A DNA stretch of 64,000 nucleotides from Pseudomonadota bacterium (lineage in GTDB: Bacteria; Pseudomonadota; Alphaproteobacteria; Rickettsiales; SXRF01), in contig JBBTBX010000009.1 in the NCBI GenBank assembly GCA_038043465.1, positions 101,383-165,382 on the forward strand. Reading direction: 5' to 3'. The notes under the pieces are model-generated. The model did not search any database and was not told where the DNA came from. It saw nothing but the letters and a program-made list of their open reading frames with translations. The position numbers and the translations under genes were made by a program. Shown one piece after another: positions 1,698-23,710 of the stretch. Each line of letters begins with the position of its first letter. Within the stretch, counting starts at the first letter, position 1.

Positions 1698-1815
1698 TAT
1701 AGTAATTCTAAATAAGAACTGTACAGTTCTTATTTGAAGATACGCTGCCTGCGGCGCGGAAAATCGGACTTTCGGTCTCGATTTTCATAATTATTATGTA
1801 TACATAATAACTATA
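1698..1815 (+). repeat. Composite TA-flanked miniature element, copy 1
   Basis: TATA + perfect 26-nt palindrome (1710-1735) + conserved core TACGC...AAAATCGGACTTTCGGTCTCGATTTT (1741-1785) + perfect 20-nt palindrome (1791-1810) + TATA; core recurs at 21537 and, inverted, at ~23590-23634. Confidence 0.85.
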
Positions 1816-1917
1816 CTCAAAGCAGTTCAAGAATTGGCTAGACAACCGAGACGAAGTGTAGAAAAACTACACGAGTCGAAGGTTAACAACGCCAATTCTT
1901 GAAATGAGAAGAGTATA
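1812..1917. repeat. Palindromic MITE-like element resembling Rickettsia RPE-2-type repeats
   Basis: Terminal inverted repeats TATACTC...TTCAAGAATTGGC / GCCAATTCTTGAA...GAGTATA with internal hairpin GTGTAG-AAAAA-CTACAC; RPE family name is from recall. Confidence 0.7.
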
Positions 1918-2241
1918 TTACAATCCAAGCTGTATATTTATAGCAAGCTCTACTGCTTCCATATCCGATTCATTCAACTGACCAATTTTTTCTTTAAGAC
2001 GCTGCTTGCTTACTGTCGCAATCTGGTCAGCACAAGCTTTGCTGGATTTACCTTTTACAGTAACTAATGCCTCACATGGATAAATTTTGCTGATATTACT
2101 GGTAAATGGGATAACCTGAATTCGGTTGAGAGCATTATTGGAAGCATTATTACTTACTATAACTGCGGGACGGGTTTTACCTATTTCTCCGCCGAGTGAT
2201 GGATCAAACGAAACCCACCAGACTTCACCGCGTTTCATCAA
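1918..2241 (-). CDS. MazF/PemK family toxin
   Basis: KRGEVWWV.FDP..G.EIGKTRPAVIVS motif; ADQIATVSKQRL. Confidence 0.92.
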   Translation of the reverse strand: MMKRGEVWWVSFDPSLGGEIGKTRPAVIVSNNASNNALNRIQVIPFTSNISKIYPCEALVTVKGKSSKACADQIATVSKQRLKEKIGQLNESDMEAVELAINIQLGL

Positions 2242-2452
2242 TATCCTGCGTCAGGTTTTCCACCCACTCGCTAGCTTCAGCTTCGCGCGCTGAATCATTC
2301 GCCATATCACGATAGCTGGCAGCAAGTTCTTTGTTCAGTACATAAGGACGCGCTAAACGCTCCAGGAACTGGCTTATATTCCCCCGCCCTATGACAGCAT
2401 GTAAGCCCTCATAAACTTTAGAATCCACGGTTATTGTTAGTTTTTTCTGCAT
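2225..2452 (-). CDS. Antitoxin of the adjacent MazF/PemK toxin (RHH-like)
   Basis: MQKKLTITVD N-terminal strand, acidic C-terminus, overlaps the toxin start. Confidence 0.8.
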   Translation of the reverse strand: MQKKLTITVDSKVYEGLHAVIGRGNISQFLERLARPYVLNKELAASYRDMANDSAREAEASEWVENLTQDIDETR

Positions 2453-2524
2453 ATACGTATATTATACGTATTAAATACGTATGTCAAGCATAAGGTTGCA
2501 TTTCCGTATTAATTGTATTACAAT
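2453..2524. promoter_or_regulatory. Divergent sigma70 promoters and operators of two TA operons
   Basis: Minus strand TTGACA(2487-2482)-17-TAATAT with three ATACGTAT palindromes at an 11-bp period; plus strand TTGCAT(2496)-17-TACAAT(2519) overlapping ATTGTATTACAAT. Confidence 0.7.
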
Positions 2525-2555
2525 GTACTAAATGTAACACATAAGGAATTTATAT

Positions 2556-2771
2556 ATGACATCGGTGCGCCTGCCGGAAAATATTGATATACAGCTCGAA
2601 CATCTTTGCGCGCTTACCAAGCGCAGCAAAAGTTTTTATATTAAGGAAGCTCTCACCAACTATCTGGAAGATATTGCTGACCAGTATATTGCTATTGACC
2701 GCATCTCACGCCCTAAACGCAAATTGCTCACCACAAAAGAAGTGCTCAAAGAGCTTGAAAAGCGGAAATGA
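2556..2771 (+). CDS. RelB-like RHH antitoxin
   Basis: MTSVRLP...RSKSFYIKEAL...YLEDIAD; ATGA overlap with the RelE toxin. Confidence 0.85.
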   Translation: MTSVRLPENIDIQLEHLCALTKRSKSFYIKEALTNYLEDIADQYIAIDRISRPKRKLLTTKEVLKELEKRK

Positions 2772-3028
2772 TATACACGGTAAAATGGGATGAGGACGCA
2801 CTTGAAGATTTATCTTCACTAGGAAAAACCGAAGCAATACGCATCGTTAAAAAAATTGAATCGCACCTAGTTAAAGATCCGCTAAATCTTGGCAAGCCGC
2901 TTACTGGCAACCTCTCTGGCTTATATCGCTACCGAATTGGTGATTACCGTATAATCTATCAAATTTTTAAAAATGAACTCATTGTTGTGGTGGTACGAGT
3001 TGGACATCGGAGGGATGTTTATGGTTGA
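2768..3028 (+). CDS. RelE/ParE family toxin
   Basis: GKPLTGNLSGLYRYRIGDYRIIY...VGHRRDVY. Confidence 0.92.
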   Translation: MIYTVKWDEDALEDLSSLGKTEAIRIVKKIESHLVKDPLNLGKPLTGNLSGLYRYRIGDYRIIYQIFKNELIVVVVRVGHRRDVYG

Positions 3029-3240
3029 ATAAATAATCTTACTTGCCACTAATTCAAAAATATGCTACTAATAGTACTAGACTATACAGAAAGCCAATAC
3101 TAATGGTGTTTTGGTTTTATAGACCGCGAATTTGTTGAGAGTAGCCTACGGTTTGAACGATACAGGGTAAGTAACCTAGTAATAGTATAATTTTTTGTCA
3201 GGGCATATCTCTATTAATTTTTTTATTATGGAGTATAACT

Positions 3241-3573
3241 ATGTCTACGCTGACAGAAACTAAAACTATTATATGGACTGGTCAATCTGGTAAAGAATAT
3301 CAATATTGGATTTACCCTATTAATACTTCTTTTAACGCAAAATCTGGTAATTACTGTTTTTCTAAAGAGACATCTTCTGGCTATTGGACTCCACTCTATT
3401 TTGGTGAGTCAGAAGATTTAAGCGGTCGCTTTGACAATCATCACAAGATAGATATGGCTATACGTCGGGGAGCTACACATATACATGCTCATGTTAATAA
3501 TGGCAGTAAAATAGCTAGAATAAATGAAGAAACAGACCTGATAAGGAAATGGAATCCTCCATGTAATGGATAA
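3241..3573 (+). CDS. Small GIY-YIG-fold putative nuclease
   Basis: GNY...LYFGES.DL..RF..H...EE.DLI....PPCN has the spacing of GIY-YIG motifs; GGAG RBS. Confidence 0.6.
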   Translation: MSTLTETKTIIWTGQSGKEYQYWIYPINTSFNAKSGNYCFSKETSSGYWTPLYFGESEDLSGRFDNHHKIDMAIRRGATHIHAHVNNGSKIARINEETDLIRKWNPPCNG

Positions 3574-3576
3574 GAT

Positions 3577-3613
3577 AAAAAAAAGCCCCAGTATTTCTAC
3601 TGGGGCTTTTTTT
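3577..3613. terminator. Bidirectional intrinsic terminator
   Basis: A-run GCCCCAGTA...TACTGGGGC T-run between convergent genes. Confidence 0.85.
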
Positions 3614-3638
3614 AGTAATGTGTGCAAATATTTTGCTA

Positions 3639-3860
3639 TTATGTCGCTGCACGCAGTATAGGGTTTAACCCATCAACTATAAAATTGCTAAGATCGGATT
3701 GTTTGCTGGCATGCTGGATGTCAAGACCGACTAGCCTACCCTGTGAGTCAATATCGGCTACTATGTCATCGGTAACAATTACAGTATCCGAGCCAGGACC
3801 ATCTATAAAGTCTATGTATAAAGAATCGGTTTCTTTATCGTAATTAAATTTCATTTTCAA
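3639..3860 (-). CDS. DUF2283 family putative antitoxin
   Basis: YDKETDSLYI...DIDSQGRLVGLDIQHAS pattern. Confidence 0.85.
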   Translation of the reverse strand: MKMKFNYDKETDSLYIDFIDGPGSDTVIVTDDIVADIDSQGRLVGLDIQHASKQSDLSNFIVDGLNPILRAAT

Positions 3861-4099
3861 TGTTCCTTTGGCTTAAATCCACGATCAAAAAATATGTTAT
3901 GCACAGTCTCGCCGTCCTCCAAAGTAATTACGCGAACGAACTTCCGTACTTCAGTTATGTATTTATAATAACGTATTCTGCCATCAGATTGAAGCATTTT
4001 ATAATCTGGTGACAAAATAGCCTCTAAGCACCACTCACGCTTCATGTAAGGTCTTTTCTTAGCCATTACATCTTCTTCAAAATAACGAGTGGTTTTCAT
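3857..4099 (-). CDS. Putative toxin (DUF4258/RelE-like) paired with DUF2283
   Basis: KTTRYF...QSDGRIRY...VRVITLEDGETVHNIFFDR; coupled to the DUF2283 gene. Confidence 0.7.
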   Translation of the reverse strand: MKTTRYFEEDVMAKKRPYMKREWCLEAILSPDYKMLQSDGRIRYYKYITEVRKFVRVITLEDGETVHNIFFDRGFKPKEH

Positions 4100-4138
4100 A
4101 AAAATCAAAATAACACAATATCTTGCCCTATCAATAAC

Positions 4139-4173
4139 AAAAAAGGCTCTGGAAATAATCCAGAGCCTTTTTT
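4139..4173 (-). terminator. Terminator of the 16S rRNA transcript
   Basis: A-run GGCTCTGGA...TCCAGAGCC T-run about 150 nt downstream of the 16S 3' end. Confidence 0.8.
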
Positions 4174-4322
4174 CATAATTTGTGTGTTCCGCCTTCGTCC
4201 AGAGGACTACGGCGTGATTCGAGCATTTAGGCGCAGATGGCGAGGCATCATGTATAATGATTCGTTTAATCAGTCAGTCACCTGAATAATTCAGGGAAAG
4301 CCGAAATAAACAAAATCCTTAG

Positions 4323-5808
<1,486 letters not shown>

Positions 5809-6190
5809 TTGATTTCTGGCAATCGTTCACATGAATTTTATGAACGCTTGCGCAATTTGCCTATATTTCTATAGGACTTTATTTTCGGAAACACGCACAA
5901 TATCATCTAATTTGCTACGCCTTGGATTTACGCAAACTAGTTTATTGTGCCCACTAACCACCGAAGTGATTAGTGATAGTACGCATATGACATTGTGCTG
6001 TTAATTTCAACAACAAACATTCAATAAAGAAGCCGACCTATGGTCGGACACCTCCGAAAAGATGCTTTGCTGTGACACAACGCCACCTGCGCTTAAATGC
6101 TCTTCACACTATCAAACTACAGATTAGAAGCCTTGTTTGAGGCACTAATCAAGCAACCTCCGAATCGAAGCCACTCAAGAAAGGATGGTC

Positions 6191-6219
6191 TTTATGACGA
6201 ATCATAATGGAAGAGTCAA
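6191..6219 (-). promoter_or_regulatory. Probable rrs promoter
   Basis: TTGACT-17 nt-CATAAA on the minus strand with an AT-rich UP-like region upstream. Confidence 0.6.
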
Positions 6220-6419
6220 GCATGAAAATCATTTTTTTTGCAATTTTTTTATATTAGTTGTTTTTTCTAGGATTTACGCCTATCTTGAGAGGTAGGATCT
6301 AGGGAGTTGGGACTAGATTTAAGAGTAAGAGCATAGAAAGTTTTTGACATGCTTCCCATATTTTTATACTAGCCCCTATAGCCTAGCATCAAGAACCCGA
6401 TATAATTGAAAATGCACAA

Positions 6420-7244
6420 ATGAAACTAGATTTTATAAAAATGAACGGTTCTGGCAACGATTTTATCATTTTTGATGCCAGAAAACAGGATATAAGCCTG
6501 TCTGGAGAGCAAATCCGGCAGATCTCAGCGCGTAACAACTCAGCAACCAAAGGCTGCGACCAGCTCCTTATATTGCGCAAGTCTGATATAGCTAATGTTT
6601 TTATGCAGATTTACAACGCCGATGGCAGCGAGGTTGATGCCTGTGGCAATGCCACGCGCTGTGTCGTGGATATTCTGTATAAAGAATCGGGAAAGCTGCC
6701 CGTAGTTATTAAGACCAATACGGCGATTTTGCTGGGGGTAAAACAGCAGGATGATTATATTCTGGTGGATATGGGTGTACCAAAATTCCGCTGGGGGGAT
6801 ATACCACTTGCAATGCCGATAAGGGAAGCAATACCTAAAATTGAAGAATTAAGCGGTTTAAAAAACCCAACCTTTGTGAGCATGGGCAATCCACATATTG
6901 TGTATTTTACAGATGAGATACCAAGTGATGCCATAGTCACGGAAATTGGTTCGCGCATTGAAAATTTTGCAGAAGTCTTTCCAAAGAGGATAAATGTCAG
7001 CTTTGCAAAAAACACTCCGGAGATTATAGAAGCAAAAATCTGGGAGCGCGGAGCAGGACTCACCAAAGCCTGTGGCACGGGAGCATGCGCTATTTTAGCA
7101 GCAGCATATAAGCAATTTGAAAGAACTGAAGCTCAGGTGAAATTCATGAATTCAGGTGAGGCTGTTCATGTAAAACTGGAAAACAAACATATATTTCTGG
7201 GCGGTCGCATAGAAACAGAGCTTACTGGTATAGTGGAGATATGA
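6420..7244 (+). CDS. dapF: Diaminopimelate epimerase
   Basis: KMNGSGNDF, NADGSEVDACGNATRC, SMGNPH, ERGAGLTKACGTGAC. Confidence 0.96.
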   Translation: MKLDFIKMNGSGNDFIIFDARKQDISLSGEQIRQISARNNSATKGCDQLLILRKSDIANVFMQIYNADGSEVDACGNATRCVVDILYKESGKLPVVIKTNTAILLGVKQQDDYILVDMGVPKFRWGDIPLAMPIREAIPKIEELSGLKNPTFVSMGNPHIVYFTDEIPSDAIVTEIGSRIENFAEVFPKRINVSFAKNTPEIIEAKIWERGAGLTKACGTGACAILAAAYKQFERTEAQVKFMNSGEAVHVKLENKHIFLGGRIETELTGIVEI

Positions 7245-8608
7245 GTAATCTAGCGTCCGTCATCCCCGTCTTGCGCGGGGATCTAGAGCAACAAACTCAA
7301 GTATCGGAACTTGGCACTAGCCCCCCGCATGAAGCGGGGGTGGCAGAAGCTATAAAAATTATCAATTTCGGTTGCCGACTGAATATTTATGAGGGTGAGA
7401 TAATCAAACAGAATGCCGCCGAAGCTGGGCTGGAAAATGCCATTATATTTAACAGTTGCGCGGTGACGGCGGAAGCTGAACGACAGGTTCGCCAATCTAT
7501 CCGCAAGGCACGCAAGGAAAATCCTGAAGCAAAAATAATCGTGACTGGTTGTGGCGCGCAGATAAACCCGAAAGCATATGCCGACATGCCAGAAGTGGAC
7601 AAAGTGATTGGCAATGAGGAGAAGCTGAAAAGCCAATCATATTCATTACTGACAACCGACAACTGGCAACTGACTACTGAAAAAATCCTCGTCAATGACA
7701 TCATGTCGGTGAAGGAAACAGCGTCACATCTGGTGGCTTCATTCGATGGGAAAGCGCGGGCATTTGTGCAGGTGCAAAATGGTTGCGACCATCGCTGCAC
7801 TTTCTGCATCATACCATTCGGGCGAGGCAATAGTCGCAGCGTGCCGATGGGCGAAATCGTAACGCAGGTGCAAGGTCTTGTGGAGACTGGTTATAATGAA
7901 GTGGTGCTGACTGGCGTTGACATAAGCGATTACGGCAAAGATTTGCCTAGTGCGCCAACGCTTGGCAATATGTGTCGCCGTTTGCTTAATCTTGTGCCGG
8001 ACTTAAAACGTCTGCGTATTTCTTCAATTGATGCGGTGGAGGTGGATGATGATCTGCTGGATTTATTTGCGAATGAACCACGCCTGATGCCACATATCCA
8101 TATCAGCTTGCAGGCGGGTGACGATATGGTTTTAAAACGCATGAAACGCAGGCATAACCGACAGGATATAGTTGATTTCTGTGCGAAGCTGCGCGAGCTT
8201 CGCCCCGATGTTGTTTTTGGTGCGGATATTATCGCAGGATTTCCCACTGAAACTGATGAAATGTTTGAAAACACCCTGAATCTGGTAAAAGAAACTGGGC
8301 TTATATATCTGCATGTCTTCCCCTACTCTGCCCGTGCTGGCACGCCCGCTGCCAAGATGCCGCAAGTAGTAAAAGCCATCCGCAAGGAACGGGCTGCAAG
8401 GCTGCGCGAAGCCGGAGAAGTAAACTTACAAAAATATCTTGAGTCGCAAATTGGCGTTACCACTGAAATTCTGGTAGAAAAAGGTAAAATAGGCAAAACT
8501 CCACACTTCGCACCGGTGGAATTGGATAGGGAATGTGAAGCGGGTAGTGTAATAAATTGTGTTATAACAGGAAGTTATACTTGTAAATTACATGCTAAAA
8601 TTTTATAA
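7241..8608 (+). CDS. mtaB: tRNA methylthiotransferase MtaB (radical SAM)
   Basis: FGCRLN, NSCAVT, CDHRCTFC; dapF-mtaB-ftsY synteny. Confidence 0.93.
   Translation: MSNLASVIPVLRGDLEQQTQVSELGTSPPHEAGVAEAIKIINFGCRLNIYEGEIIKQNAAEAGLENAIIFNSCAVTAEAERQVRQSIRKARKENPEAKIIVTGCGAQINPKAYADMPEVDKVIGNEEKLKSQSYSLLTTDNWQLTTEKILVNDIMSVKETASHLVASFDGKARAFVQVQNGCDHRCTFCIIPFGRGNSRSVPMGEIVTQVQGLVETGYNEVVLTGVDISDYGKDLPSAPTLGNMCRRLLNLVPDLKRLRISSIDAVEVDDDLLDLFANEPRLMPHIHISLQAGDDMVLKRMKRRHNRQDIVDFCAKLRELRPDVVFGADIIAGFPTETDEMFENTLNLVKETGLIYLHVFPYSARAGTPAAKMPQVVKAIRKERAARLREAGEVNLQKYLESQIGVTTEILVEKGKIGKTPHFAPVELDRECEAGSVINCVITGSYTCKLHAKIL
7258..7345. repeat. CGTC-tagged REP doublet in frame in the mtaB N-terminus
   Basis: CGTCATCCCCG..CGGGGATCTAG ... 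CTAGCCCCCCGC..GCGGGGGTGGCA; same design as the intergenic element at 10265-10350. Confidence 0.8.
7649..7680 (+). repeat. Heptamer tandem repeat inside mtaB
   Basis: CTGACAA CCGACAA CTGGCAA CTGACTA CTGA, encoding LTTDNWQLTTE. Confidence 0.75.
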
Positions 8609-8617
8609 AACTGCCTA

Positions 8618-8646
8618 TTGCTCTGTAATGCCTAGTGTTATATAAT
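8618..8646 (+). promoter_or_regulatory. sigma70 promoter of the TA module
   Basis: TTGCTC-17 nt-TATAAT. Confidence 0.65.
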
Positions 8647-8666
8647 GTCAATGAGAGGAATGAATT

Positions 8667-9056
8667 TTGAGGGTTTTTCAAACAAAATCGTTTGCTCGCT
8701 TTGCTATAAAATCAGGAATTGACGACCACGCTTTGTGCAAAGCAGTAATGAATGCAGAAAACGGCTTGATTGATGCGGATTTAGGCGGAGGAGTAATAAA
8801 GCAACGTGTTGCAAGAAAAGGTGAAGGGAAATCCGGTGGTTTTCGTACCATCATTTTATTCAAAATAAAAGACAAGGCGTTCTTCGTTTATGGTTTTGCT
8901 AAAAATGAGAAATCCAATATAGAAAATAATGACCTGTTAGATTTCAGAAGGCTCGCAGCAGATATGCTAGGTTATGCTGAATTAGAGATAGCCAAAGCTG
9001 TAAAAAACAAGTTACTAATTGAGGTAGAATATGAAAACAAAACAATATCGCAATAA
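8667..9056 (+). CDS. RelE/ParE superfamily toxin (HigB-like, toxin-first)
   Basis: DADLGGGVIKQRVARKGEGKSGGFRTI...FVYGFAKNEKSNI. Confidence 0.9.
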   Translation: MRVFQTKSFARFAIKSGIDDHALCKAVMNAENGLIDADLGGGVIKQRVARKGEGKSGGFRTIILFKIKDKAFFVYGFAKNEKSNIENNDLLDFRRLAADMLGYAELEIAKAVKNKLLIEVEYENKTISQ

Positions 9057-9351
9057 AATCGCAGCCACTATCCATGAAACGGCAGAAGGGCTATATGCGT
9101 CTGGTTTGATGGACAAAAAAACAATGCAAGAATTTGATGGAAGCTGCCTAACACCAACTAAAAATCTTACCGCAGAAGAAATACGCAACATAAGGGAAAA
9201 AGAAAATGTCAGCCAGAGCGTGTTTGCCAACTATCTGAATGTTACAAAGGGACTTGTTAGCCAATGGGAACGAGGAGAAAAACATCCCTCTGGAACTTCT
9301 CTAAAACTGTTGTCTTTGGTTGCAAAAAAAGGGCTTGATGCTATTGCATAA
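9031..9351 (+). CDS. XRE-family HTH antitoxin (HigA-like)
   Basis: IRNIREKENVSQSVFANYLNVTKGLVSQWERGEKHPSG. Confidence 0.9.
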   Translation: MKTKQYRNKIAATIHETAEGLYASGLMDKKTMQEFDGSCLTPTKNLTAEEIRNIREKENVSQSVFANYLNVTKGLVSQWERGEKHPSGTSLKLLSLVAKKGLDAIA

Positions 9352-9354
9352 AAT

Positions 9355-10263
9355 ATGTCTTTCCTATCCAAACTAAAATCAGGTTTATCCAAAACCTCTG
9401 GCAAACTTTCCAGTGGTATTGTTGGTATTTTTACCAAGCGCAAGCTGGATAATGACTCGCTGGAAGAGCTGGAAGAGTTGCTAATAGAGGCGGATTTAGG
9501 CGCGCCACTGGCACATGAATTAACAACAGAATTCGCCAAGCAGCGTTTTGATAAAAACATTGAAGCTGGTGAAGTGCGCGAATTTCTAGCTGGTAAAATA
9601 GCTGATATATTGAAGCCCTACTCCATCCCACTGACCACTGACCACCGACCACTGACCACTATCATCATGGTGGGAGTAAATGGCAACGGCAAAACCACAA
9701 CTATCGGCAAACTCGCCAGTAAGTTTAAGAACGAAGGTAAAAAAGTGATGATCGCGGCGGCGGACACATTCCGCGCAGCAGCAGTTGAGCAGATGCAGGT
9801 CTGGGGTGAGCGTTCAAATATTCCAGTAGTCACCGGCGCGTTTCAAGCCGATCCAGCAAGCGTTGCTTTCCAAGCACTCGAAAGGGCAAGAGCGGAAAAT
9901 GTTGACGTGCTATTTATCGACACAGCCGGACGTTTGCAGAATAAATCAAACCTCATGGCGGAATTGCAAAAAATTATAAAAGTGCTGAAAAAAATTGATG
10001 AATCCGCACCCCACCATGTCCTCCAAGTTCTGGATGCCACCACTGGGCAGAATGCGCTGTCACAGGTGAGCACTTTTAAAGAGATGGTAAATGTTACCGG
10101 GCTGATTATCACTAAGCTTGACGGCACTGCCAAAGGTGGGATCGTAGTCGCCCTCGCCCGCGAATCCAAACTTCCAATTCACGCAATCGGCATTGGTGAA
10201 GCGATTGATGATTTAGATGCTTTCAACCCAGAAGATTTTGCCAGAAATCTGGTGGATTTGTAG
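9355..10263 (+). CDS. ftsY: SRP receptor FtsY
   Basis: GVNGNGKTTT, DTFRAAA, DTAGR, TKLDGTAKGG. Confidence 0.97.
   Translation: MSFLSKLKSGLSKTSGKLSSGIVGIFTKRKLDNDSLEELEELLIEADLGAPLAHELTTEFAKQRFDKNIEAGEVREFLAGKIADILKPYSIPLTTDHRPLTTIIMVGVNGNGKTTTIGKLASKFKNEGKKVMIAAADTFRAAAVEQMQVWGERSNIPVVTGAFQADPASVAFQALERARAENVDVLFIDTAGRLQNKSNLMAELQKIIKVLKKIDESAPHHVLQVLDATTGQNALSQVSTFKEMVNVTGLIITKLDGTAKGGIVVALARESKLPIHAIGIGEAIDDLDAFNPEDFARNLVDL
9631..9660 (+). repeat. Heptamer tandem repeat inside ftsY
   Basis: CTGACCA CTGACCA CCGACCA CTGACCA CT, encoding LTTDHRPLTT. Confidence 0.85.
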
Positions 10264-10264
10264 C

Positions 10265-10350
10265 TGTCATCCCGCACTTGATGCGGGATCTAGGGATAAA
10301 ACCAATGACAGAATTGTTGCCATAGATCCCCGATTAAATCGGGGATGACA
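10265..10350. repeat. TGTC-tagged REP doublet (RPE-4/WPE-like)
   Basis: TGTCATCCCGCACTTGATGCGGGATCTAG ... TAGATCCCCGATTAAATCGGGGATGACA. Confidence 0.85.
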
Positions 10351-10389
10351 AGATTCCTTGGACAGGCTGGAGATAACACAAACAATTTA

Positions 10390-11355: not shown

Positions 11356-11456
11356 TTTCAGATTAGTAAAGTAATATAAACTTGCTAATAATTGGTTAAT
11401 TCATTGAATTATATGAAATTAATTAGACATATCCGCAGGTTGGTTATTTCTATTGA

Positions 11457-14085: not shown

Positions 14086-14093
14086 TTATACAA

Positions 14094-14181: not shown

Positions 14182-14186
14182 TAGCT

Positions 14187-15455: not shown

Positions 15456-15776
15456 CTAACTTAATACCATATATCTAAAGGTTAAAGTAGTTATGGCTCA
15501 CCGAGCATAATCCCGATAAACCGCCTGCTAGTGCGTTGTTTTTTAACAGAATTTATCACAAAAGGCCTATTTGTTGTTAACGAAACGACTTCTATATATA
15601 GAAATCAAAAATATAATAAAGCAAAAACTGCAAATATATAAGAGTTTTTTTCAAGAATTTTATTAAATCTACGTAATCTGACAAAAACCCTAAATTATTG
15701 AATGACAAGCCCTGAAAAACAGGATACTCCTTTCTAGCAAAATCGAATTAACCATATAAAATAAGGTTTTGCCTAG

Positions 15777-17261
<1,485 letters not shown>

Positions 17262-17265
17262 TAAC

Positions 17266-17377
17266 TTGTCATGCCAGCGTAGGCTGGCATCCAGAAAAAT
17301 AAATCTGGATACCAGACAGCTCAGTTTTTAAAGGACATTTGCAAGCAAATGTGAAAAACTGGCTTCTGGTATGACAA
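17266..17377. repeat. TGTC-tagged REP doublet with expanded arm (family B, copy 1)
   Basis: TTGTCATGCCAGCGTAGGCTGGCATCCAG ... CTGGATACCAG[~50 nt]CTGGTATGACAA; right arm nearly identical to the reverse complement of 22388-22460. Confidence 0.85.
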
Positions 17378-17408
17378 TCTCATTGAATAAGATACAAAGG
17401 CAAGACAA

Positions 17409-18074
17409 GTGAACCGCATATATTTCTTTATCGCCATAGCTATTTTAATTGCCTTTCTTATCGCGCAGTTTCCATATGCTGTTGCAAAAAATGATGATAA
17501 GATGCAACTGGTTTATTCAACTTTGATATTATCCATAGTTGCTCTTGGCGCAAGAAGCCTGCCTTTAAACCAAACCCTAAAATATGTAGCTGCATGGATT
17601 GTTGTATTTTTTATTATAGTGCTTGGCTATAGCTATAAAGATACTATTTTGAACACGCGGATAATGGCGGAATTACTGCCTAACCGCGCGCGGATTAATG
17701 CGGAAGGAAATATTGTTATCCGCGCCAGCCAGAATAAACATTTTCATATTGAAGCGAAAGTAAATGGCGTGCCGGTTAATTTTATGATTGATACTGGCGC
17801 GAGCGATGTGGTGCTTAGTAAAAGCGATGCTGAGCGTGCCGGCATAAATACTGAAGAACTTGCTTATACCCGCACCTATTATACCGCCAATGGCGTAACC
17901 GGTGGCGCGATTATAAAGTTGAAACGCCTGCAGATTGGTGAGTTTATCCTCGATGATTTCCCAGTAAGCGTTAATAAAGGCAAAATGGATGGCTCGCTAC
18001 TCGGAATGAGCGCGCTTAGAGAACTAGGCGGATTCAGGATTGATGGTGACGAGATGGTGATAGGTAAGGATTAA
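17409..18074 (+). CDS. Clan AA aspartic protease (TIGR02281-like)
   Basis: N-terminal TM helices; FMIDTGAS; TANG; SLLGMS. Confidence 0.92.
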   Translation: MNRIYFFIAIAILIAFLIAQFPYAVAKNDDKMQLVYSTLILSIVALGARSLPLNQTLKYVAAWIVVFFIIVLGYSYKDTILNTRIMAELLPNRARINAEGNIVIRASQNKHFHIEAKVNGVPVNFMIDTGASDVVLSKSDAERAGINTEELAYTRTYYTANGVTGGAIIKLKRLQIGEFILDDFPVSVNKGKMDGSLLGMSALRELGGFRIDGDEMVIGKD

Positions 18075-18409
18075 TACATCACCGATGCTCCTCTTTTTCT
18101 TATTACCTCAGGACAATCTCTACACATCGCTTTTACTAGTTCTGGATTAATAATTTCATAAACCGGTTTACTTCCTGGGCTATTAATTGAGGATGACCAT
18201 ACCACACCAAAACCTGCCATCCCTGCAACTTTTTCATAAGCAACTCTAAAAACACAATCATCTCTTTCAAAAACAAGTGCGCCTTGCCGTTTACCATCTC
18301 CACCATTAAGCCCTTTGGTACCGTCAAATTTTACGCCATCATTAGTCAGTAAAATTAAAACTTGCCTAGCTTCTTCTCTTGATAAATTTTCCATGTTAAA
18401 TCTCCACAA
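18071..18409 (-). CDS. Hypothetical protein
   Basis: Open frame with plausible composition; no family recognised; start uncertain. Confidence 0.5.
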   Translation of the reverse strand: MWRFNMENLSREEARQVLILLTNDGVKFDGTKGLNGGDGKRQGALVFERDDCVFRVAYEKVAGMAGFGVVWSSSINSPGSKPVYEIINPELVKAMCRDCPEVIRKRGASVMY

Positions 18410-18582
18410 TTTTAAACTTTATAATATTTTATAAGGCATTATAGCCTTTAACTCTGAGAATAAGTTAGCAGTTTACCAGAGAAAATAGTATTAAGATTTT
18501 GTGACAAGTGTTTGAATATAAGAAAATATATGCTATCTATTTGTAAATAAATGATTTTTAATCAACCATACTATACACCAAT

Positions 18583-19905
18583 ATGACCCCAGGCGCACGC
18601 ATCCAAGCTTCCATCGAACTGCTCGACCAGATATTTACCGCATGGCAATCGGAGAAAAGATTTCCTGCCGATAAAATGCTGGAGCAATATTTCAAGGGGC
18701 ATCGCTATATTGGTTCTAAGGATCGCGGCGCGGTGGCAGAACTCATATATTGGGTGCTGCGCCATAAATCCACTATCCAGTGGTGGCTGGAAAAATATTC
18801 GCAAGCCTCAGATGGCAGGGCATTTATTATGGCAGCGCTGATACTACGCCATGATTTCAATCCGCAGACGATGGAAAGTTTGAGCAAGGACAGCAAATAT
18901 TCGCCAGATAAACTAAGTGACGCTGAGCAAAAATTTATCCATACATTAGTACGGATGGATCTAACCAACCCGGATATGCCCGACCATATCCGCCTGAATT
19001 ATCCTGAGTGGATGGATGAAAACCTGCGTGCTAGTTTTGGTGACAAACTTGCAGAAGCAATGAACGCTATGAATGAACAGGCACCGACCGATTTGCGCGT
19101 AAATACGCTGAAAACCCACCGCGAAAAATTGATTGGGCAATTGCAAGCGGAAGGGTTTGATTGCTCCCCTACCCCATTCTCTCCAATCGGCATACGCCTT
19201 ACTCGGCGCGCTCCGATTTTTACTTCCAAGTTTTTCAAGGAAGGGCATTTTGAAGTGCAGGATGAAGGCTCGCAGGCTGTAGCATTACTGGTTGATGCAA
19301 AACCAAATCACCGCGTGATTGATTTCTGCGCCGGAGCTGGTGGCAAGACTCTCGCCATAGCTGCAAGCATGGAAAATAAAGGGCGGATTCTGGCGTGGGA
19401 CACATCAAAGAAACGCCTCGACCAGATAAATATCCGATTGAGACGTGCTGGCGTACATAATGTGCAGACACATGTTCTGGAATCAGAGCATGATGCTTTT
19501 ATCAAACGTCATAAAGCAACTGCTGACCGCGTCCTGATTGACGTACCATGCAGCGGAAGTGGAACATGGCGACGCAATCCAGATCTCAAATGGAGATTCA
19601 ACAAAAAGGATTTGGAAGAAGTTTGTAAAGTACAGCAAGATATTTTGCAAAGCGCGGCACGATTAGTAAAGCCCGGTGGCAGGCTGATTTATGCAACTTG
19701 TTCAGTGTTTAAGGAAGAGAATGAAAATCAGATTGAGATTTTCTTAAAATCCAGTAACCATTTTAAGGTTGTCTGTGAACAAAAAATATGGAATAAAAGT
19801 CATCCCGCTGACTGTGATAATAATACATCACATTTTCGGGTAGCTCCACACGAAGATGGAGTTGATGGTTTTTTTGCTGCGGTACTAGAACGTCTACCCG
19901 CATAA
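18583..19905 (+). CDS. RsmB/NOP family RNA m5C methyltransferase
   Basis: MTPGARIQA, EVQDEGSQ, DFCAGAGGKT, DVPCSGSG, YATCS, DGFF. Confidence 0.93.
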   Translation: MTPGARIQASIELLDQIFTAWQSEKRFPADKMLEQYFKGHRYIGSKDRGAVAELIYWVLRHKSTIQWWLEKYSQASDGRAFIMAALILRHDFNPQTMESLSKDSKYSPDKLSDAEQKFIHTLVRMDLTNPDMPDHIRLNYPEWMDENLRASFGDKLAEAMNAMNEQAPTDLRVNTLKTHREKLIGQLQAEGFDCSPTPFSPIGIRLTRRAPIFTSKFFKEGHFEVQDEGSQAVALLVDAKPNHRVIDFCAGAGGKTLAIAASMENKGRILAWDTSKKRLDQINIRLRRAGVHNVQTHVLESEHDAFIKRHKATADRVLIDVPCSGSGTWRRNPDLKWRFNKKDLEEVCKVQQDILQSAARLVKPGGRLIYATCSVFKEENENQIEIFLKSSNHFKVVCEQKIWNKSHPADCDNNTSHFRVAPHEDGVDGFFAAVLERLPA

Positions 19906-19934
19906 AAAAATTAAGAAATTAAATATAATCGGGA

Positions 19935-21032
19935 GTGACTATGCTAAATTACCAAATTCAGCAAGTGGGCTTGCTTTCTTATTATCCTGCTGCTGGAAAA
20001 TATATCAAACAGCTTTTCCATCCACGCAGGATTATTATTGCTTCACAGAAGAAAGTGGTGAAATTCACCATCAATATTCCTGCCCAGATTTTTCTATTAT
20101 TGCTCATTGCCAGTTTCATCTTGTGGTCATCATATACGGTTGGGCGTTTAATCGCGGCGAATATCGCGCTGGAAGAAAAAGCCCGAGACCTGCATTTAAC
20201 CAGTCAGTTAGTTACCCAACAAAAACTTGGAGAGATGCTTGTTTCCACTCTGCCGGTTTTGCCCTCCGCAAAGGATAATAAAATTACACTACCTAATCCC
20301 GATCCAAGAAAAGTTGTAATGCTGGAGAAGAAGATTTCTGAGCTGAAAGATTTTAACGAGGAAGTTGCCAAACGCATAAGTACAAAAACAGACGGGCATA
20401 TTGACAATCTGGAGAATATCGTCCGGCAAACCGGATTAAATCCAACATCGATCAAACAAGAATTAAACAAGAATAAAAAACATAGAGATGCGGAAGGTGG
20501 GCCTTACATCCCAAGCTCACTAATAGAAGTTTCTGATAATACACAGAAGATGTTTGACCTGCTTGATGAATTGCAAGATCTGCGACAGATTGTTGCCAGC
20601 CTCCCCTTGTCGCTGCCAATAAAAAATGCACAGGCACATAGCGGTTTCGGGCATCGTTATGACCCATTTAACGGCAATGCGGCGTTCCATTCCGGTCTTG
20701 ATCTTGCCGCTCCCAGCAATTCCGAGATTTACAGCACATCTGACGGAGTTGTGGAAGCAGCTGAGCGTGACCCTGCATATGGAAATATGATCGATATTAA
20801 TCATGGTTTCGGTATAGTAACCAGATATGGGCATTTGAAGAGAATAAATGTTAAAAAAGGTGATAAAGTCAAACGTGGTGACATTATCGGTGTGCAAGGC
20901 AGCACTGGACGTAGCACCGGCGAGCATCTGCATTACGAGGTGCGCTATAATGGTCAGGCCGTTAATCCACAAAAGTTTTTGCAGGCCGGAAAGCTGCTGG
21001 AAGTTAGCAATAGCTCCATACTGGAAGATTAA
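19935..21032 (+). CDS. M23 family peptidoglycan peptidase
   Basis: TM helix and coiled coil; HSGLD, YGHL, GSTGRSTGEHLHYEVR. Confidence 0.92.
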   Translation: MTMLNYQIQQVGLLSYYPAAGKYIKQLFHPRRIIIASQKKVVKFTINIPAQIFLLLLIASFILWSSYTVGRLIAANIALEEKARDLHLTSQLVTQQKLGEMLVSTLPVLPSAKDNKITLPNPDPRKVVMLEKKISELKDFNEEVAKRISTKTDGHIDNLENIVRQTGLNPTSIKQELNKNKKHRDAEGGPYIPSSLIEVSDNTQKMFDLLDELQDLRQIVASLPLSLPIKNAQAHSGFGHRYDPFNGNAAFHSGLDLAAPSNSEIYSTSDGVVEAAERDPAYGNMIDINHGFGIVTRYGHLKRINVKKGDKVKRGDIIGVQGSTGRSTGEHLHYEVRYNGQAVNPQKFLQAGKLLEVSNSSILED

Positions 21033-21059
21033 TCCTTACTCCGTGTACGACACAAGCGA

Positions 21060-21410
21060 TTAGGATTTCTTACGACCACGCTTCTTTTTTGGGCATAAAT
21101 AGCTGGAGACGATGTAATATTTAAGAGCGCGGATTGACTCCTCCGATGCGCCGGAAGTAAAATAGCGCAGCACGATATAACGCTCGGAATCAAGTATTTC
21201 CTGGAAGAATCTGCGCTCCCTGCGCGATGACAGCAGCTTGCCTGTCGCCATATTCTCTTCAAGAAGATAGCGTTTCATTTTACGCACTAAAGACAGGTCA
21301 TAAAAAGGGGTGTCTAAGGCAAGCAGATCGTCATTATCATTTGACGCTACTGGAAGGAACACAAAATTGTGACACCGCCCTATATGTTGCATGCGAACAG
21401 TATAAATCAA
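21060..21410 (-). CDS. Hypothetical protein
   Basis: 116-aa ORF with basic C-terminus; no family recognised. Confidence 0.5.
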   Translation of the reverse strand: MIYTVRMQHIGRCHNFVFLPVASNDNDDLLALDTPFYDLSLVRKMKRYLLEENMATGKLLSSRRERRFFQEILDSERYIVLRYFTSGASEESIRALKYYIVSSYLCPKKKRGRKKS

Positions 21411-21475
21411 CTATATATAGAGTCAATTCGTTTTTTTAACTATTATGAAGAGGTATGAACGTAGACCTTGTAATT

Positions 21476-21702
21476 TGTCATTGCGAGGAAATTTATAATT
21501 GTTACAGAAAATAATGATACATCATTATTTTCTGGTTACGCCCGCTACGCGGCGAAAAATCGGACTTTCGGTCTCGATTTTCATACTCCATTATGTATTA
21601 AAAAATACAGAATGGAGTATATTTCCAAAGCAATCCAGTAGTCTGCATATATTGAAAATACTGGATTGCCACGCATTTCTTATAAAAATGCTCACAATGA
21701 CG
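21476..21702. repeat. RPE-7-like REP doublet interrupted by the composite element
   Basis: TGTCATTGCGAGGAAATT ... TTTCCAAAGCAATCCAG ... CTGGATTGCCACGCATTT..AAATGCTCACAATGACG. Confidence 0.8.
21494..21621 (+). repeat. Composite TA-flanked miniature element, copy 2
   Basis: TATA + hairpin CAGAAAATAATGA-TACA-TCATTATTTTCTG + core (21537-21581) + hairpin ATACTCCATT...AATGGAGTAT + A. Confidence 0.85.
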
Positions 21703-21712
21703 GAAGGCTAGG

Positions 21713-21973
21713 TTACATATCTTTTAAATATTCAGCTAGGAATTCTTCGGCAGATTCGTCCGGTTCTTTGCCAAATCCGGTATATACAACTTCACCATAA
21801 TCAGAGACATCTTTACATGCTGTTCTCGTCATAAAATCGCTTTTCATTTTATGATATTGTTTTTCGTTACAGCGTATATAGGCGTAAAAATCTTCACCGG
21901 CGCGTGATACGGCACGGTATAACACTACGCTACTTTGGGCTTTCTGACGAATAACTGAAGCAAATTTGCCCAT
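21713..21973 (-). CDS. Hypothetical protein
   Basis: 86 aa, GGTGAG RBS-like site, DYGEVVYTGFGKEP motif; function unknown. Confidence 0.65.
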   Translation of the reverse strand: MGKFASVIRQKAQSSVVLYRAVSRAGEDFYAYIRCNEKQYHKMKSDFMTRTACKDVSDYGEVVYTGFGKEPDESAEEFLAEYLKDM

Positions 21974-22008
21974 AACTCACCTATGAAAAATCATGAGGTT
22001 TGCTATAA

Positions 22009-22224
22009 TCATCTAGTTTTCTGAGCTGTTGTATTCTGTTTTGCAAAAGCCTCTTTCATTCTCCATTCCTGATCCGGAGAATAATTTAATCCCTTATTTT
22101 CTGTCTGCTGACGAATCTTCTGAATTTTATCAACAATACCTGCTCGCTCTTCATCTTTTAAAGAATCATAAGTTGGCGTTTGGCTAGCTGATGTTTTTTT
22201 AGTTGTTGTTTCATTTTCTGACAT
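22009..22224 (-). CDS. Hypothetical protein
   Basis: 71 aa with GGAGG RBS; function unknown. Confidence 0.6.
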   Translation of the reverse strand: MSENETTTKKTSASQTPTYDSLKDEERAGIVDKIQKIRQQTENKGLNYSPDQEWRMKEAFAKQNTTAQKTR

Positions 22225-22387
22225 AAATCCTCCATCTCTTATCTATGATATTTTGTTTATTTAATTACATTTGCCTATAAATACTGCTAAACAATCTAAC
22301 AAATTTTCCAGCTTTATCACATTAAGCTTTTGTTACAATTTTATTATCATTGAAAATCAGCAATATAATCTTAACTCTGGGAATAAC

Positions 22388-22543
22388 TTGTCATACCAGA
22401 AGCCAGTTTTTTACATTTGCTTGCAAATGTCCTTATAAAACTGAGCTGTCTGGTATCCAGACTTTACTACGCTGGATGCACACATAGCTGATTTTGTAAC
22501 GATTTTTACAAAATCTAACAAAATCCAGCTTCTGGCACGACAA
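22388..22543. repeat. TGTC-tagged REP doublet with both arms expanded (family B, copy 2)
   Basis: TTGTCATACCAG[..]CTGGTATCCAG ... CTGGATGC[..]CTGGCACGACAA. Confidence 0.85.
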
Positions 22544-22547
22544 ATTA

Positions 22548-23180
22548 TCACTTCCGCCCAATCTGCCGGTCGATCATGTCCTTAAGCGATGAATCTTCAG
22601 GCAGCGATTTATAGAGCTCCTTCATCTCCGCCATAGCGTTTTCAGTGTCGCCCGACTGCATTTTATGCATCGCCAGAAAATAGCGCGCTTTCTCATTAGC
22701 GGGTTGCAATATAAGCAGCATATCCAGACTTTTCTTTGCGTCCTGCGTTACCGTTCCACCGGCAGCCAGAATCATGGCGCTGGCATATGCCATAATTAGC
22801 TCCGGATTGCCGCGCGAAAGTAAAATTCCCTGCTTATAAGCATTGGCAGCAGCGTCAAACTGATTTGATTCCATAAAATTATCGGCAAGTTCCAGCCATG
22901 CCTTAATATCTTTTGGGTCTTTTTTTACAGCGTCGGAATTTACTATTATTTTTTCTTTCAACGCCGATATCTCTTCTTCACGCTCGGCAAGTAACGGCAA
23001 AATTTCCGGTGTCCCAAACTGCTTATATAAAAACAAGCCCCCGCCAGCAATAAACATGGTTATCACTAACGAAAATAATGTCCGGTTTTTTCTGGAAATT
23101 TTTTTATCACGAACCACCGGAAACAACAAAATTCCAAGCAGCAGCACCAGTATTGCAGAAAATATTATATATATATTCAT
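22548..23180 (-). CDS. Cytochrome c biogenesis TPR protein (CcmI/CycH-like)
   Basis: Two TM helices plus TPR repeats; last gene of the ccm operon. Confidence 0.8.
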   Translation of the reverse strand: MNIYIIFSAILVLLLGILLFPVVRDKKISRKNRTLFSLVITMFIAGGGLFLYKQFGTPEILPLLAEREEEISALKEKIIVNSDAVKKDPKDIKAWLELADNFMESNQFDAAANAYKQGILLSRGNPELIMAYASAMILAAGGTVTQDAKKSLDMLLILQPANEKARYFLAMHKMQSGDTENAMAEMKELYKSLPEDSSLKDMIDRQIGRK

Positions 23181-23710
23181 AGTCTTTTTTTAGGTTTTGC
23201 ACCATGGAAATAAAAAAAGGCGGCACCTCCCCCGATCAACAATACAACCCATGGTCCGAGCCACAATAACACAGTGCTGGTTTTAAATGGTGGATTCATG
23301 AGAATAACGTCACCATAACGCTGTGCCAACTCTGATTTTATTTTCTCTTCACTCATGCCAGAAGTAATCTGTTGCCTTATGTTACGCCGTATATCGCCCG
23401 CGACTTCCGCATTGGAATCAGAAATAGCTTGTCCCTGACACACCATGCAGCGTATTTCTTTAAATAATTCCTGCGCCCTACGTTCTTGCCCAGAATCAGG
23501 CAGCGGAACATCGGCAGCAAAGGCAAATAAAGGAAAAATCCAAAGAAATACTATAGCCATTCCAACTGAAAAGTTGGGATGGGTATATAAAAATCGAGAC
23601 CGAAAGTCCGATTTTTCGCCGCGTAGCGGGCGTACGCACTTCAAGAATTCCCAATTCTTGAAGTGCAAAAGATATATTAATAAATTAAGCTTATTCAGCG
23701 CGTTTATCAT
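23177..23710 (-). CDS. ccmH: Cytochrome c biogenesis protein CcmH (with 41-codon insertion)
   Basis: IRCMVCQGQAISDSNA, RYGD...PP, LLWLGP. Confidence 0.92.
   Translation of the reverse strand: MINALNKLNLLIYLLHFKNWEFLKCVRPLRGEKSDFRSRFLYTHPNFSVGMAIVFLWIFPLFAFAADVPLPDSGQERRAQELFKEIRCMVCQGQAISDSNAEVAGDIRRNIRQQITSGMSEEKIKSELAQRYGDVILMNPPFKTSTVLLWLGPWVVLLIGGGAAFFYFHGAKPKKRL
23552..23676 (-). repeat. Composite TA-flanked miniature element, copy 3 (in frame in ccmH)
   Basis: Minus strand: TATA + hairpin GCACTTCAAGAATT-GGG-AATTCTTGAAGTGC + core + TATACCCATCCCAACT-TTTC-AGTTGGAATGGCTATA. Confidence 0.88.

Follow-up and report, generated by a model that had tools for sequence, protein, structure and literature searches.

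The three repeats described here lie in a 64,000-nucleotide stretch of contig (the window) and are probably, at roughly 0.8, members of a non-autonomous MITE superfamily related to small insertion sequences of the IS630 family with TA|TAG ends. They represent a gene-less MITE family with TA as its insertion site, present in uncultured alphaproteobacteria of groundwater, and as selfish DNA it is of a familiar kind. The unusual point is that conservation is higher in the twin-hairpin middle of the element than in its hairpinned ends, and such a best-conserved centre is not predicted by the plain MITE model. The features are as follows.

1698–1815, forward strand: copy 1, subfamily C, 118 nt (covariance model R1, 99 bits, E 1.2e-15); H1 1706–1738, H2 1743–1758, H3/core 1760–1785, H4 1791–1810; TA at 1698–1699 and 1814–1815.
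1812–1917, no strand assigned: MITE2, a separate 106-nt MITE of the classical long-hairpin type.
21427–21717, no strand assigned: the CGTC-tagged, REP-like palindromic repeat that hosts copy 2.
21494–21621, forward strand: copy 2, subfamily B, 128 nt (covariance model, 136 bits); H1 21505–21534, H2 21539–21554, H3/core 21556–21581, H4 21583–21620; TA at 21494–21495 and 21620–21621.
23177–23710, reverse strand: ccmH open reading frame, 177 aa, which reads through copy 3 (Pfam CcmH match, residues 52–173).
23552–23676, reverse strand: copy 3, subfamily A, 125 nt (covariance model, 112.6 bits); H1 23636–23666, H2 23617–23632, H3/core 23590–23615, H4 23557–23582.

An exact 26-nt core, AAAATCGGACTTTCGGTCTCGATTTT, is present three times in the window (1760–1785 and 21556–21581 on the forward strand, 23590–23615 on the reverse strand), with no occurrence expected from 100 shuffles. 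Copies 2 and 3 have 45 identical nucleotides in common, spanning the GC hairpin and the core, and the GC hairpin of copy 1 is a compensated variant of theirs. The left TATA lies 43, 43 and 42 nt from the GC hairpin in the three copies, and each right module is a palindrome with a TATA end. The shared core, the fixed spacing and the self-complementary right modules had all been claimed in the original prediction, and all three are confirmed. Each copy can form four consecutive local hairpins on either strand (z −7.6 to −12.7), and none of 200 shuffles was as stable. In this arrangement the outer hairpins H1 and H4 each consist of a terminal repeat and a neighbouring stretch complementary to it. 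Of the two inner hairpins, both of them bulged, H2 is rich in GC and has a loop of three bases, and H3 has the form A4-stem-T4. The repeat boundaries coincide with breaks in the metagenome contigs of four other runs, at 21494, 21621/2, 23552 and 23677–9. Copy 1 is also held by the close relative G004; the whole host repeat at 21427–21717 is missing from G004 and from one metagenomic strain, 16 other bases standing in its place, and CGTC-type REPs are abundant in the window's own genome (G000).

Genome-wide, G000 carries 40 core copies at up to 4 mismatches and 62 copies by covariance model. Subfamily A has 13 members and subfamily B 12 full-length and one shortened, two of the subfamily B copies being 100% identical (copy 2 has such a twin at G000 C14:42372–42499). 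The elements are non-coding, multi-copy and 113–147 nt long, and the covariance-model family extends to 24 of the 44 genomes of the bacterial family and 12 of its 19 genera. The predicted genome-wide spacing of 42–43 nt held in part: across genomes TATA lies 40–43 nt upstream of the GC hairpin in 53 of 92 distinct short-core copies, the other 39 being truncated, mutated, mis-anchored or of a class with a 33–34-nt left module. Pattern matching in G000 gave 54 matches, 2 of them chance matches; of the remaining 52, 47 are intergenic. By neighbouring-gene layout these 47 comprise 15 divergent, 24 tandem and 8 convergent contexts, which shows no preference. A core-like hairpin also stands alone in an unrelated contig labelled Saccharibacteria.

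If there were no unit at all, the composites would be independent small palindromes brought together by serial insertion at TA hot spots. TAs in hairpin loops do receive nested insertions, and there are a few shortened or solo pieces (e.g. C7:57312–57341, C6:152314–152348 and C1:28318–28383). However, BLAST with the three copies returns full-length or centre-sharing matches, with one solo H4 for subfamily A and none for B, and the covariance-model matches listed for G000 all cover model positions 1–127. Module order, spacing and bulges are moreover constant across 12 genera, so that serial insertion is extremely improbable.

Duplication of TA upon insertion fits at all five interpretable filled/empty or nested sites, one of them the ccmH junction of copy 3, as had been proposed together with an assignment to IS630/Tc1-mariner-type MITEs. 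The G004 copy L041 fits against the empty site at G000 C11:33219, and L033 fits against G000 C2:150017 with an additional 11-nt indel; the comparisons at L023 and L014 are too diverged to read and lie outside the five. Among nested sites, an E-type copy with TA on one flank and TG on the other has entered the loop of a C-type H4, and a B-type copy sits in the TA of a collapsed C-type copy, flanked by TA on both sides. Among 15 G004 copies with both flanks on a single G000 contig, G000 shares 8 and cleanly lacks 2, which indicates recent mobility.

On the basis of sequence resemblance, the superfamily appears to be linked with one clade of insertion sequences in the IS630 family, ~0.9 kb long and ending in TA|TAG. 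An insertion sequence in G007 with HTH_Tnp_IS630 and DDE_3 open reading frames has the ends TA|TAGTTAACTAACC and ...GATAGCTA|TA, and its first 14 nt, TATAGTTAACTAAC, match the subfamily E left end at every position (14/14). Exact copies of TATAGTTAACTAAC number 7 in G000, 3 in G004, 6 in G007 and 2 in G055. In 54 of 81 related IS630 loci, TATA...TATA inverted ends are found 879–1106 bp apart, nearly all starting TATAG. MITE 16-mers, allowing up to 2 mismatches, gave 46 matches to IS630 loci vs 15 for reversed controls. In the suggested matching of end modules to IS630 terminal repeats, agreement is seen at the subfamily E left end and in the shared TATAG; past that TATAG the resemblance of MITE termini to IS630 ends is modest, at a mean best 9.99 of 15 positions vs 8.48 for shuffled termini, and only 10 of 98 termini outscore all 50 of their own shuffles. 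A cognate insertion sequence was found for one end of subfamily E only, in another species. DDE_3 is present in 6 of the 44 family genomes, 5 of which also have the MITE, and the MITE is found in 19 of the 38 genomes lacking DDE_3. Neither G000 nor G004 gave a DDE_3 (IS630) match, both being draft MAGs in which a multi-copy insertion sequence may be unassembled, although their insertions differ. A tblastn search with the G007 transposase returned nothing below E = 1, and no mariner transposase was found in the G000 draft.

A further candidate for the mobilising enzyme is an HUH/Y1 nuclease acting on a single-stranded hairpin element, as in IS200/IS605-derived PATEs or REP/RAYT, with the TATA ends as cleavage sites. 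In keeping with this, the outer hairpins preserve structure rather than sequence, and on the complementary strand the H2 loop is G-N-A closed by C-G, a very stable type of DNA mini-hairpin. The empty sites are also AT-rich, and a TATA target is not strictly separable from a TA duplication. Against it, Y1_Tnp (PF01797) had no match in G000 where controls were positive in 6 genomes, and the termini match IS630-family ends, with TA on each side at the nested and empty-site comparisons. In addition, the hairpins recognised by a single Y1 enzyme are alike at the two ends, whereas the left and right hairpins are unlike within an element in most subfamilies. Movement by HUH/Y1 is consequently judged highly improbable.

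The hairpins themselves are under constraint. H2 and H3 are kept in sequence over 12 genera, with pairing held by compensatory changes, and among 93 distinct copies 84 have an H1 of 8 bp or more and 92 an H4 of that length. The check for covarying hairpins gave a clear answer: over 85 distinct sequences, 40 of 44 pairs, drawn from all four hairpins, changed on both sides. Paired cells amounted to 89.6% vs 35–47% with slid partners, a level reached by none of 500 shuffles, in an alignment whose fitting to the covariance model favours pairing; in an alignment that was not model-fitted, restricted to the H2 and H3 helices, pairing was 95.3% vs 30–50%. Information per position was 1.43 bits in H2 and 1.46 in H3 vs 0.49 in H1 and 0.40 in H4, and 1.27 in the last six bases. 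The original prediction of a reversed pattern, with constant centre and variable ends, therefore stands as regards the centre, which is the best conserved part, but not as regards the extreme ends, where TATAG...CTATA is conserved in the MITE as well as in related insertion sequences. The TATA...TATA termini are invariant in A1, and it is the inner terminal repeats that vary between subfamilies.

Such covariation in four helices would also be expected of a structured non-coding RNA or an RNA-level cis element (terminator, processing site or sRNA) repeated by chance, the more so as the A4-stem-T4 form of H3 resembles a bidirectional intrinsic terminator and the solitary Saccharibacteria hairpin would fit the same explanation. 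However, Rfam at the gathering threshold found only 16S rRNA and two tRNAs in the whole window, a search of 21400–23800 at E up to 10 gave only sub-threshold chance matches, and a simple terminator scan did not flag the elements. No orientation or position bias is seen, the elements in tandem contexts being 11 in the same and 13 in the opposite orientation to the genes. Wobble pairs are not favoured either, the non-Watson-Crick cells on the element strand comprising 70 G.T vs 107 A.C; this Watson-Crick-symmetric constraint suggests action on DNA or on both strands rather than on an RNA of one polarity. Together with TA duplication and presence/absence polymorphism, which reflect mobility as DNA, these data do not uphold the structured-RNA alternative, and it is very unlikely.

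The three copies had also been described as having unrelated left modules, which proved incorrect for copies 1 and 2. The left modules of subfamilies B, C and D and of the main G007 type can be aligned free of gaps and have terminal bases in common; B, C and D are diverged homologues, and their ends show compensatory changes. The C-type ends have the usual form of terminal inverted repeats, 27 nt long (22/27 matching). Subfamily A is a different case. The two ends of MITE2 are homologous to the two subfamily A ends (21/26 and 20/30 positions, by eye), and all 32 exact occurrences of TTCAAGAATTGG in the genome lie within subfamily A elements or MITE2, so the proposed resemblance of the copy 3 left end to the MITE at 1812–1917 was correct. 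The best match of the A right end is a different IS630 end (12/15). MITE2, which has the TATA at 1812–1815 in common with copy 1, gives 14 full or near-full matches and a short partial one in G000 and has matches in all nine genomes of the genus.

Mosaicism is real, in that central segments move between subfamilies. Three centre versions (short, with a 20–21-nt block, and with a long linker) can each be found next to several types of end, one B copy has a C/D-type H3, and G001, G002 and G003 have the MITE2 centre between ends other than its own. These observations, with the common centre of subfamily A, its MITE2-like ends and the two different IS630 ends matched by the E left and A right ends, can be read as a MITE chassis that switches ends, its twin-hairpin centre having been repeatedly recombined with ends acquired from different IS630 lineages or MITE families. 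Several points tell against that reading, which we consider doubtful. The gap-free left modules of B, C, D and the main G007 type are as expected under descent, in subfamilies A and B of the genome the left end and the right end go together, and an A-like copy in G005 has compensatory changes in all four hairpins, making the A combination old and evolving by divergence. The exchanges demonstrated are, moreover, of the centre and not of the ends. Of the earlier proposal that a core recruits ends from other MITE families, the sharing of both MITE2 ends by subfamily A and the movement of centres survive, but free interchange of unrelated ends does not.

Copy 3 lies in frame within ccmH, close to the 5′ end of the gene. 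Its 125 nt less 2 leave 123 nt, or 41 codons, and HSP geometry shows the orthologous ccmH junctions of G001 and G007 to be shorter by exactly 123 nt, in agreement with the claim that removal of the unit with one TA left behind restores the frame. The gap opposite the insert is visible in the alignment of five congeners (G001, G002, G006, G007 and G008), and the Pfam CcmH match begins at residue 52, right after the insert. An ATG within the right end of copy 3 would yield a normal signal peptide for the ccmH product. The orthologous copy is of the short form in G000 and has a 21-nt extra block in G004, which is also a point in favour of end-switching by a chassis.

Several known elements resemble the family in part. 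RUP, as presented by Delihas (2008; PMC2229807), is a high-copy, recently mobile, non-coding element of ~107 bp that inserts at TA and has termini resembling IS630-family insertion sequences. The present family is like RUP/IS630-Spn1 in its TA duplication and in one subfamily end identical to an IS630-family end. It differs in its host, an uncultured alphaproteobacterial lineage in whose own draft genome no cognate insertion sequence was found, in having four local hairpins in place of one long stem-loop, and in a centre conserved across genera while inner terminal repeats vary. The same source describes the Correia/NEMIS elements of Neisseria as having TA duplication, 5′-TA-3′ termini, forms differing by an internal segment, copies within genes and an unknown transposase. 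The likeness, as judged from these properties, extends here to length forms that differ by an internal 20–21-nt block; unlike the ~24 bp conserved, mutually pairing terminal repeats of Correia, which also has an IHF site, the inner terminal repeats here have diverged and each pairs locally. The palindromic RPE of Rickettsia are also alphaproteobacterial, 105–146 bp and in frame in protein genes, are modelled as long stem-loops, and have their target duplication listed as unknown in that account (PMC2229807). Compared by general properties only, copy 3 is RPE-like in lying in frame in ccmH with 3 of its 6 frames open (copy 1 has stops in all six), but only 4 of the 52 real G000 copies lie inside open reading frames of at least 100 aa. 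REP/BIME, the CGTC type of which hosts copy 2, are likewise mosaics of small palindromic units (Di Nocera 2013; PMC3733652); REPs are 20–40 bp units with GTAG/CGTC tags and no TA duplication, whereas the present elements have no such tags and carry IS630-type ends.

Under the preferred reading, that of a non-autonomous IS630-related MITE superfamily, a transposase supplied in trans (none was found in this draft assembly) would recognise the terminal inverted repeats, and the element would insert at and duplicate TA, often one that lies in a loop of some other hairpin repeat. Subfamilies come about as copies diverge while the hairpins are kept; central segments were exchanged by gene conversion at one orthologous copy and may have been so at others, and subfamily A joins the common centre to ends that a different MITE family also has. 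Our best guess for the centre, offered at somewhat less than even odds, is an architectural DNA module (cruciform/hinge or host-factor site) that helps an element of ~120 bp to join its ends. More tentatively, H2 and H3, bulges and loops included, could be a functional module under element-level selection (a DNA hinge, cruciform or host-factor site) that very short IS630-type elements need for transposition, and a portable chassis onto which recombination has placed terminal repeats from several different IS630 lineages and from a second MITE family. If that were true, one non-autonomous lineage could parasitise successive transposases.

The repeats considered here lie in the window beside several other features.

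Repeat copies and neighbouring features (window coordinates)
1698-1815, + strand: copy 1 (subfamily C), repeat with exact core
1812-1917: MITE2, a separate 106-nt MITE adjoining copy 1, with 15 matches in the source genome and present in 9/9 genomes of the genus
1918-2241, - strand: ORF for a PemK/MazF-like toxin (Pfam E 1e-27)
2225-2452, - strand: small ORF upstream of the toxin, no Pfam match
4323-5809, - strand: 16S rRNA gene, solitary
21427-21717: host repeat of copy 2, missing in the close relative G004 and in one metagenomic strain, with 16 different bases in its place in both
21494-21621, + strand: copy 2 (subfamily B), repeat with exact core
23552-23676, - strand: copy 3 (subfamily A), repeat with exact core

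The 26-nt core, AAAATCGGACTTTCGGTCTCGATTTT, is identical in copies 1, 2 and 3, with a chance expectation of none, and copies 2 and 3 have 45 identical bases in common, including the GC-rich hairpin ahead of the core. The distance from the left TATA to this hairpin is 43, 43 and 42 nt in the three copies, and whichever strand is folded, every copy gives four consecutive local hairpins, H1, H2, H3 (the core) and H4 (z -7.6 to -12.7). In four public metagenome runs, contig breaks fall at 21494, 21621/2, 23552 and 23677-9. The core identity, spacing, folding and contig breaks at the repeat boundaries together show that the original prediction, of a shared core placed 42-43 nt from a TATA among hairpins, described the three repeats accurately. 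The element family thus inflates and fragments MAG assemblies, since contigs of the four runs end exactly at its boundaries.

In the source genome (2.1 Mb in 23 contigs, 43% G+C) the core was matched 40 times at ≤4 mismatches, and a covariance model of the whole element gave 62 matches. Subfamily A, the type of copy 3, has 13 copies there; subfamily B, the type of copy 2, has 12 full-length copies and one truncated copy, two of these being 100% identical. The heterogeneous C/D group to which copy 1 belongs accounts for 18/40 core matches. A further subfamily, E, with a shorter left module and an H3 variant, has about 10 copies. Single modules on their own were hardly ever seen. The exact core pattern occurs in 10/44 genomes of the bacterial family, and the covariance model finds the element family in 24/44 genomes, 12/19 genera and 9/9 genomes of the genus. 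Among 185,579 species genomes the exact pattern was confined to uncultured MAGs labelled Rickettsiales or Alphaproteobacteria, with one exception, a Saccharibacteria-labelled contig carrying a core-like hairpin only.

Such a build could be that of a structured RNA unit, which had been put forward as an alternative. No match to the elements was found in Rfam, and a terminator scan did not flag them. Fifty-four pattern matches were located in the source genome, two of them due to chance; 47/52 real matches fall between genes (divergent in 15 cases, tandem in 24 and convergent in 8), 4/52 lie inside ORFs of ≥100 aa and 1/52 lies at a contig edge. Orientation in the tandem contexts is balanced (11 same versus 13 opposite), and on the element strand mismatched cells comprise 70 G.T versus 107 A.C. 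The lack of an Rfam match, the context and orientation counts and the deficit of G.T relative to A.C speak against the RNA alternative; they are consistent with a strand-symmetric constraint on the DNA and with a selfish element rather than with a host regulator or RNA gene.

Mobility is evident from orthologous sites. Duplication of TA, part of the original prediction, agrees with 5/5 interpretable sites. The ccmG-ccmH junction, where copy 3 resides, is exactly 123 nt shorter in the congeners G001 and G007 and is gapped too in the congeners G002, G006 and G008; single-TA sites are present in the source genome where two G004 copies are absent. An E-type copy is nested at the loop TA of a C-type H4, with flanks TA/TG, and a collapsed C-type element has a B-type copy inserted at its TA. 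Two further comparisons of G004 with the source genome (loci L023 and L014) are ambiguous at the empty site, and at L023 a remnant of the element may persist in the source genome. Both flanks could be placed in the source genome for 15 G004 copies, eight of which are shared, so the element family has moved since these two genomes, roughly 94-98% identical, split. Sequencing runs listed for this DNA come from 8 studies and are DNA runs throughout. No precise empty allele was found for copy 2 or copy 3 in the covered stretches of reads and contigs from four DNA runs; at the copy 2 site, G004 lacks the whole host repeat.

The insertion into ccmH was confirmed to be in frame, as the shorter junction in G001 and G007 and an ORF open through the element both indicate. 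Within 23552-23710 (- strand) this ORF is stop-free through the MITE in both the source genome and G004, despite the 21-nt extra block of the latter, and an ATG within the right end of copy 3 would begin a normal signal peptide. The number of open frames out of six is three for copy 3 (A), one for copy 2 (B) and none for copy 1 (C). Members of the element family can occupy genes in frame, ccmH being an example.

A search for a cognate transposase gave no DDE_3 match in the source genome or in G004 and no Y1 match in the source genome, although all genomes are MAGs and such absence is weak evidence; mariner PF01359 also had no match in the source genome, but its control matched nowhere either, making that result uninformative. 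In the congener G007 there is a TA-bounded IS whose ORFs match HTH_Tnp_IS630 and DDE_3, and its first 14 bases, TATAGTTAACTAAC, are identical to those at the left end of subfamily E. Of 81 loci encoding relatives of the transposase of this IS, 54 have inverted TATA...TATA ends at a spacing of 879-1106 bp. Nearly all these IS630 ends begin TATAG and then vary, and the MITE termini follow the same pattern. Past TATAG the match between MITE and IS ends is modest (9.99 versus 8.48 of 15 positions), with 10/98 MITE termini beating their own shuffles. DDE_3 occurs in 6/44 family genomes, 5/6 of which also have the MITE; the MITE is present in 19/38 family genomes without DDE_3. The TA-bounded IS630 with its E-identical left end and the common TATAG termini favour the IS630-type reading of the original prediction, and we conclude that the element is probably an IS630-clade MITE superfamily. 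A cognate IS was not found for subfamilies A, B, C and D, a metagenome scan returning only partial end matches.

Other candidate drivers were set aside. For a second IS630 type in G007 and for elements in genomes G005, G042 and G049, any similarity of the ends to the MITE is loose at best. An IS5-family element of the source genome (contig C3:38-774; DDE_Tnp_1, two overlapping ORFs, at a contig end) has an end starting GG, unlike the MITE termini; it is the only transposase-family match in that assembly among four families searched. At G007:C39:1-253 a MITE copy adjoins a truncated IS630-family element (IS positions 747-950), which looks like an insertion into the putative driver, similar to the insertion into a driver IS reported for RUP. 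Separately, G005 contains a multi-copy short repeat (loci L086, L090 and L093; 15 weak DDE_3 matches among 16) in which the final ∼23 codons of an IS630-family transposase gene are present together with its right end; an origin as a MITE from the 3' part of an IS seems likely.

The ends had been described as unrelated, interchangeable modules. This view was not upheld: over the left module, types B, C and D and the main G007 types can be aligned gap-free and have terminal bases in common, identifying the B, C and D ends as diverged homologues, and C-type ends are ordinary inverted repeats (22/27 positions matching). The predicted resemblance between an end of copy 3 and MITE2 extends to homology of both A ends with both MITE2 ends, and 32/32 exact copies of the shared 12-mer fall in subfamily A or MITE2; at least one subfamily thus has ends in common with another MITE. 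The combination of A centre and ends is old, because an A-like copy in G005 has compensatory changes in 4/4 hairpins.

True mosaicism lies in the centre. A 20-21-nt block between H2 and H3 (ACCCGAAGGGCGGCGAAGCC in the source genome) is combined with several end types, as is a long-linker form of the centre, and the H3 variant typical of C/D is present in one B copy. The orthologous ccmH copy has the short form in the source genome and the block form in G004, with the same unusual left terminus in both. Gene conversion between dispersed copies would be the simplest cause of such exchange. Clustering of end types at 70% identity was too coarse for linkage, and no claim was drawn from it. MITE2 offers a second case of a conserved centre with differing ends, its central ∼48 nt being retained (up to 94% identity) between different terminal repeats in G001, G002 and G003 (loci L120, L121 and L124).

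Several neighbouring features were recorded. The MITE2 boundary coincides exactly with the stop codon of the PemK/MazF-like toxin, for which the small upstream ORF may encode the antitoxin. No 23S or 5S match was found within the 64-kb window, so the rRNA genes are unlinked here. REP-like palindromic repeats with CGTC tags (CGTCATTGCGAG...CTCGCAATGACG) are abundant in the source genome, at many sites; the host repeat of copy 2 is one of them, and a second host-repeat copy (contig C4:40564-40705) carries a D-type element without H4 at the same TA.

The closest described systems are RUP/IS630-Spn1 and the Correia elements (PMC2229807); the present element differs from these in being built of four hairpins, in its selected centre, in inner ends that diverge and in the mosaicism of the centre. 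Full-text literature searches gave general MITE papers and no description of the element family. We rate the family as a probable variant of the already described MITE type of selfish DNA, with no prior account found.

Conservation is greatest in the twin-hairpin centre formed by H2 and H3. In a MAFFT alignment of 20 diverse copies these hairpins pair in 95.3% of cells, versus 30-50% with slid partners, and both-side changes occur in 5/16 pairs. Among 102 matches (85 distinct, 12 genera), aligned by fitting to the covariance model, unlike the MAFFT set, 89.6% of cells pair versus 35-47% when slid, and both-side changes occur in 40/44 pairs, a value reached by 0/500 shuffles. Hairpins of ≥8 bp are formed by H1 in 84/93 distinct copies and by H4 in 92/93. 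Information per position is 1.43 bits in H2, 1.46 in H3, 0.49 in H1, 0.40 in H4, 0.85 in the first 11 bases and 1.27 in the last six, so that the centre and outermost bases are conserved and the outer hairpins variable. Bulges in H2 and H3 are retained across subfamilies, which suggests selection acting on a shape over simple homogenisation of the palindrome arms.

In all copies (e.g. 21539-21554) H2 has a loop of three bases, read on the complementary strand as G-N-A (GTA or GAA) and closed by a C-G pair, a DNA mini-hairpin type of unusual stability. Two more mini-hairpins, these with GAA loops on the element strand itself, lie in the extra 20-21-nt block.

A MITE is normally identified by conserved, transposase-read ends, to which its persistence is also commonly attributed. 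In the present element it is an internal twin hairpin that is best conserved and clearly covaries, being preserved in at least 12 genera of an uncultured family of alphaproteobacteria, and its inner terminal repeats have diverged. Should transposition or survival of the element depend on the centre, very short IS630-type elements would have an architectural requirement not recognised so far, and non-autonomous elements would have a route by which to switch the transposase they exploit.
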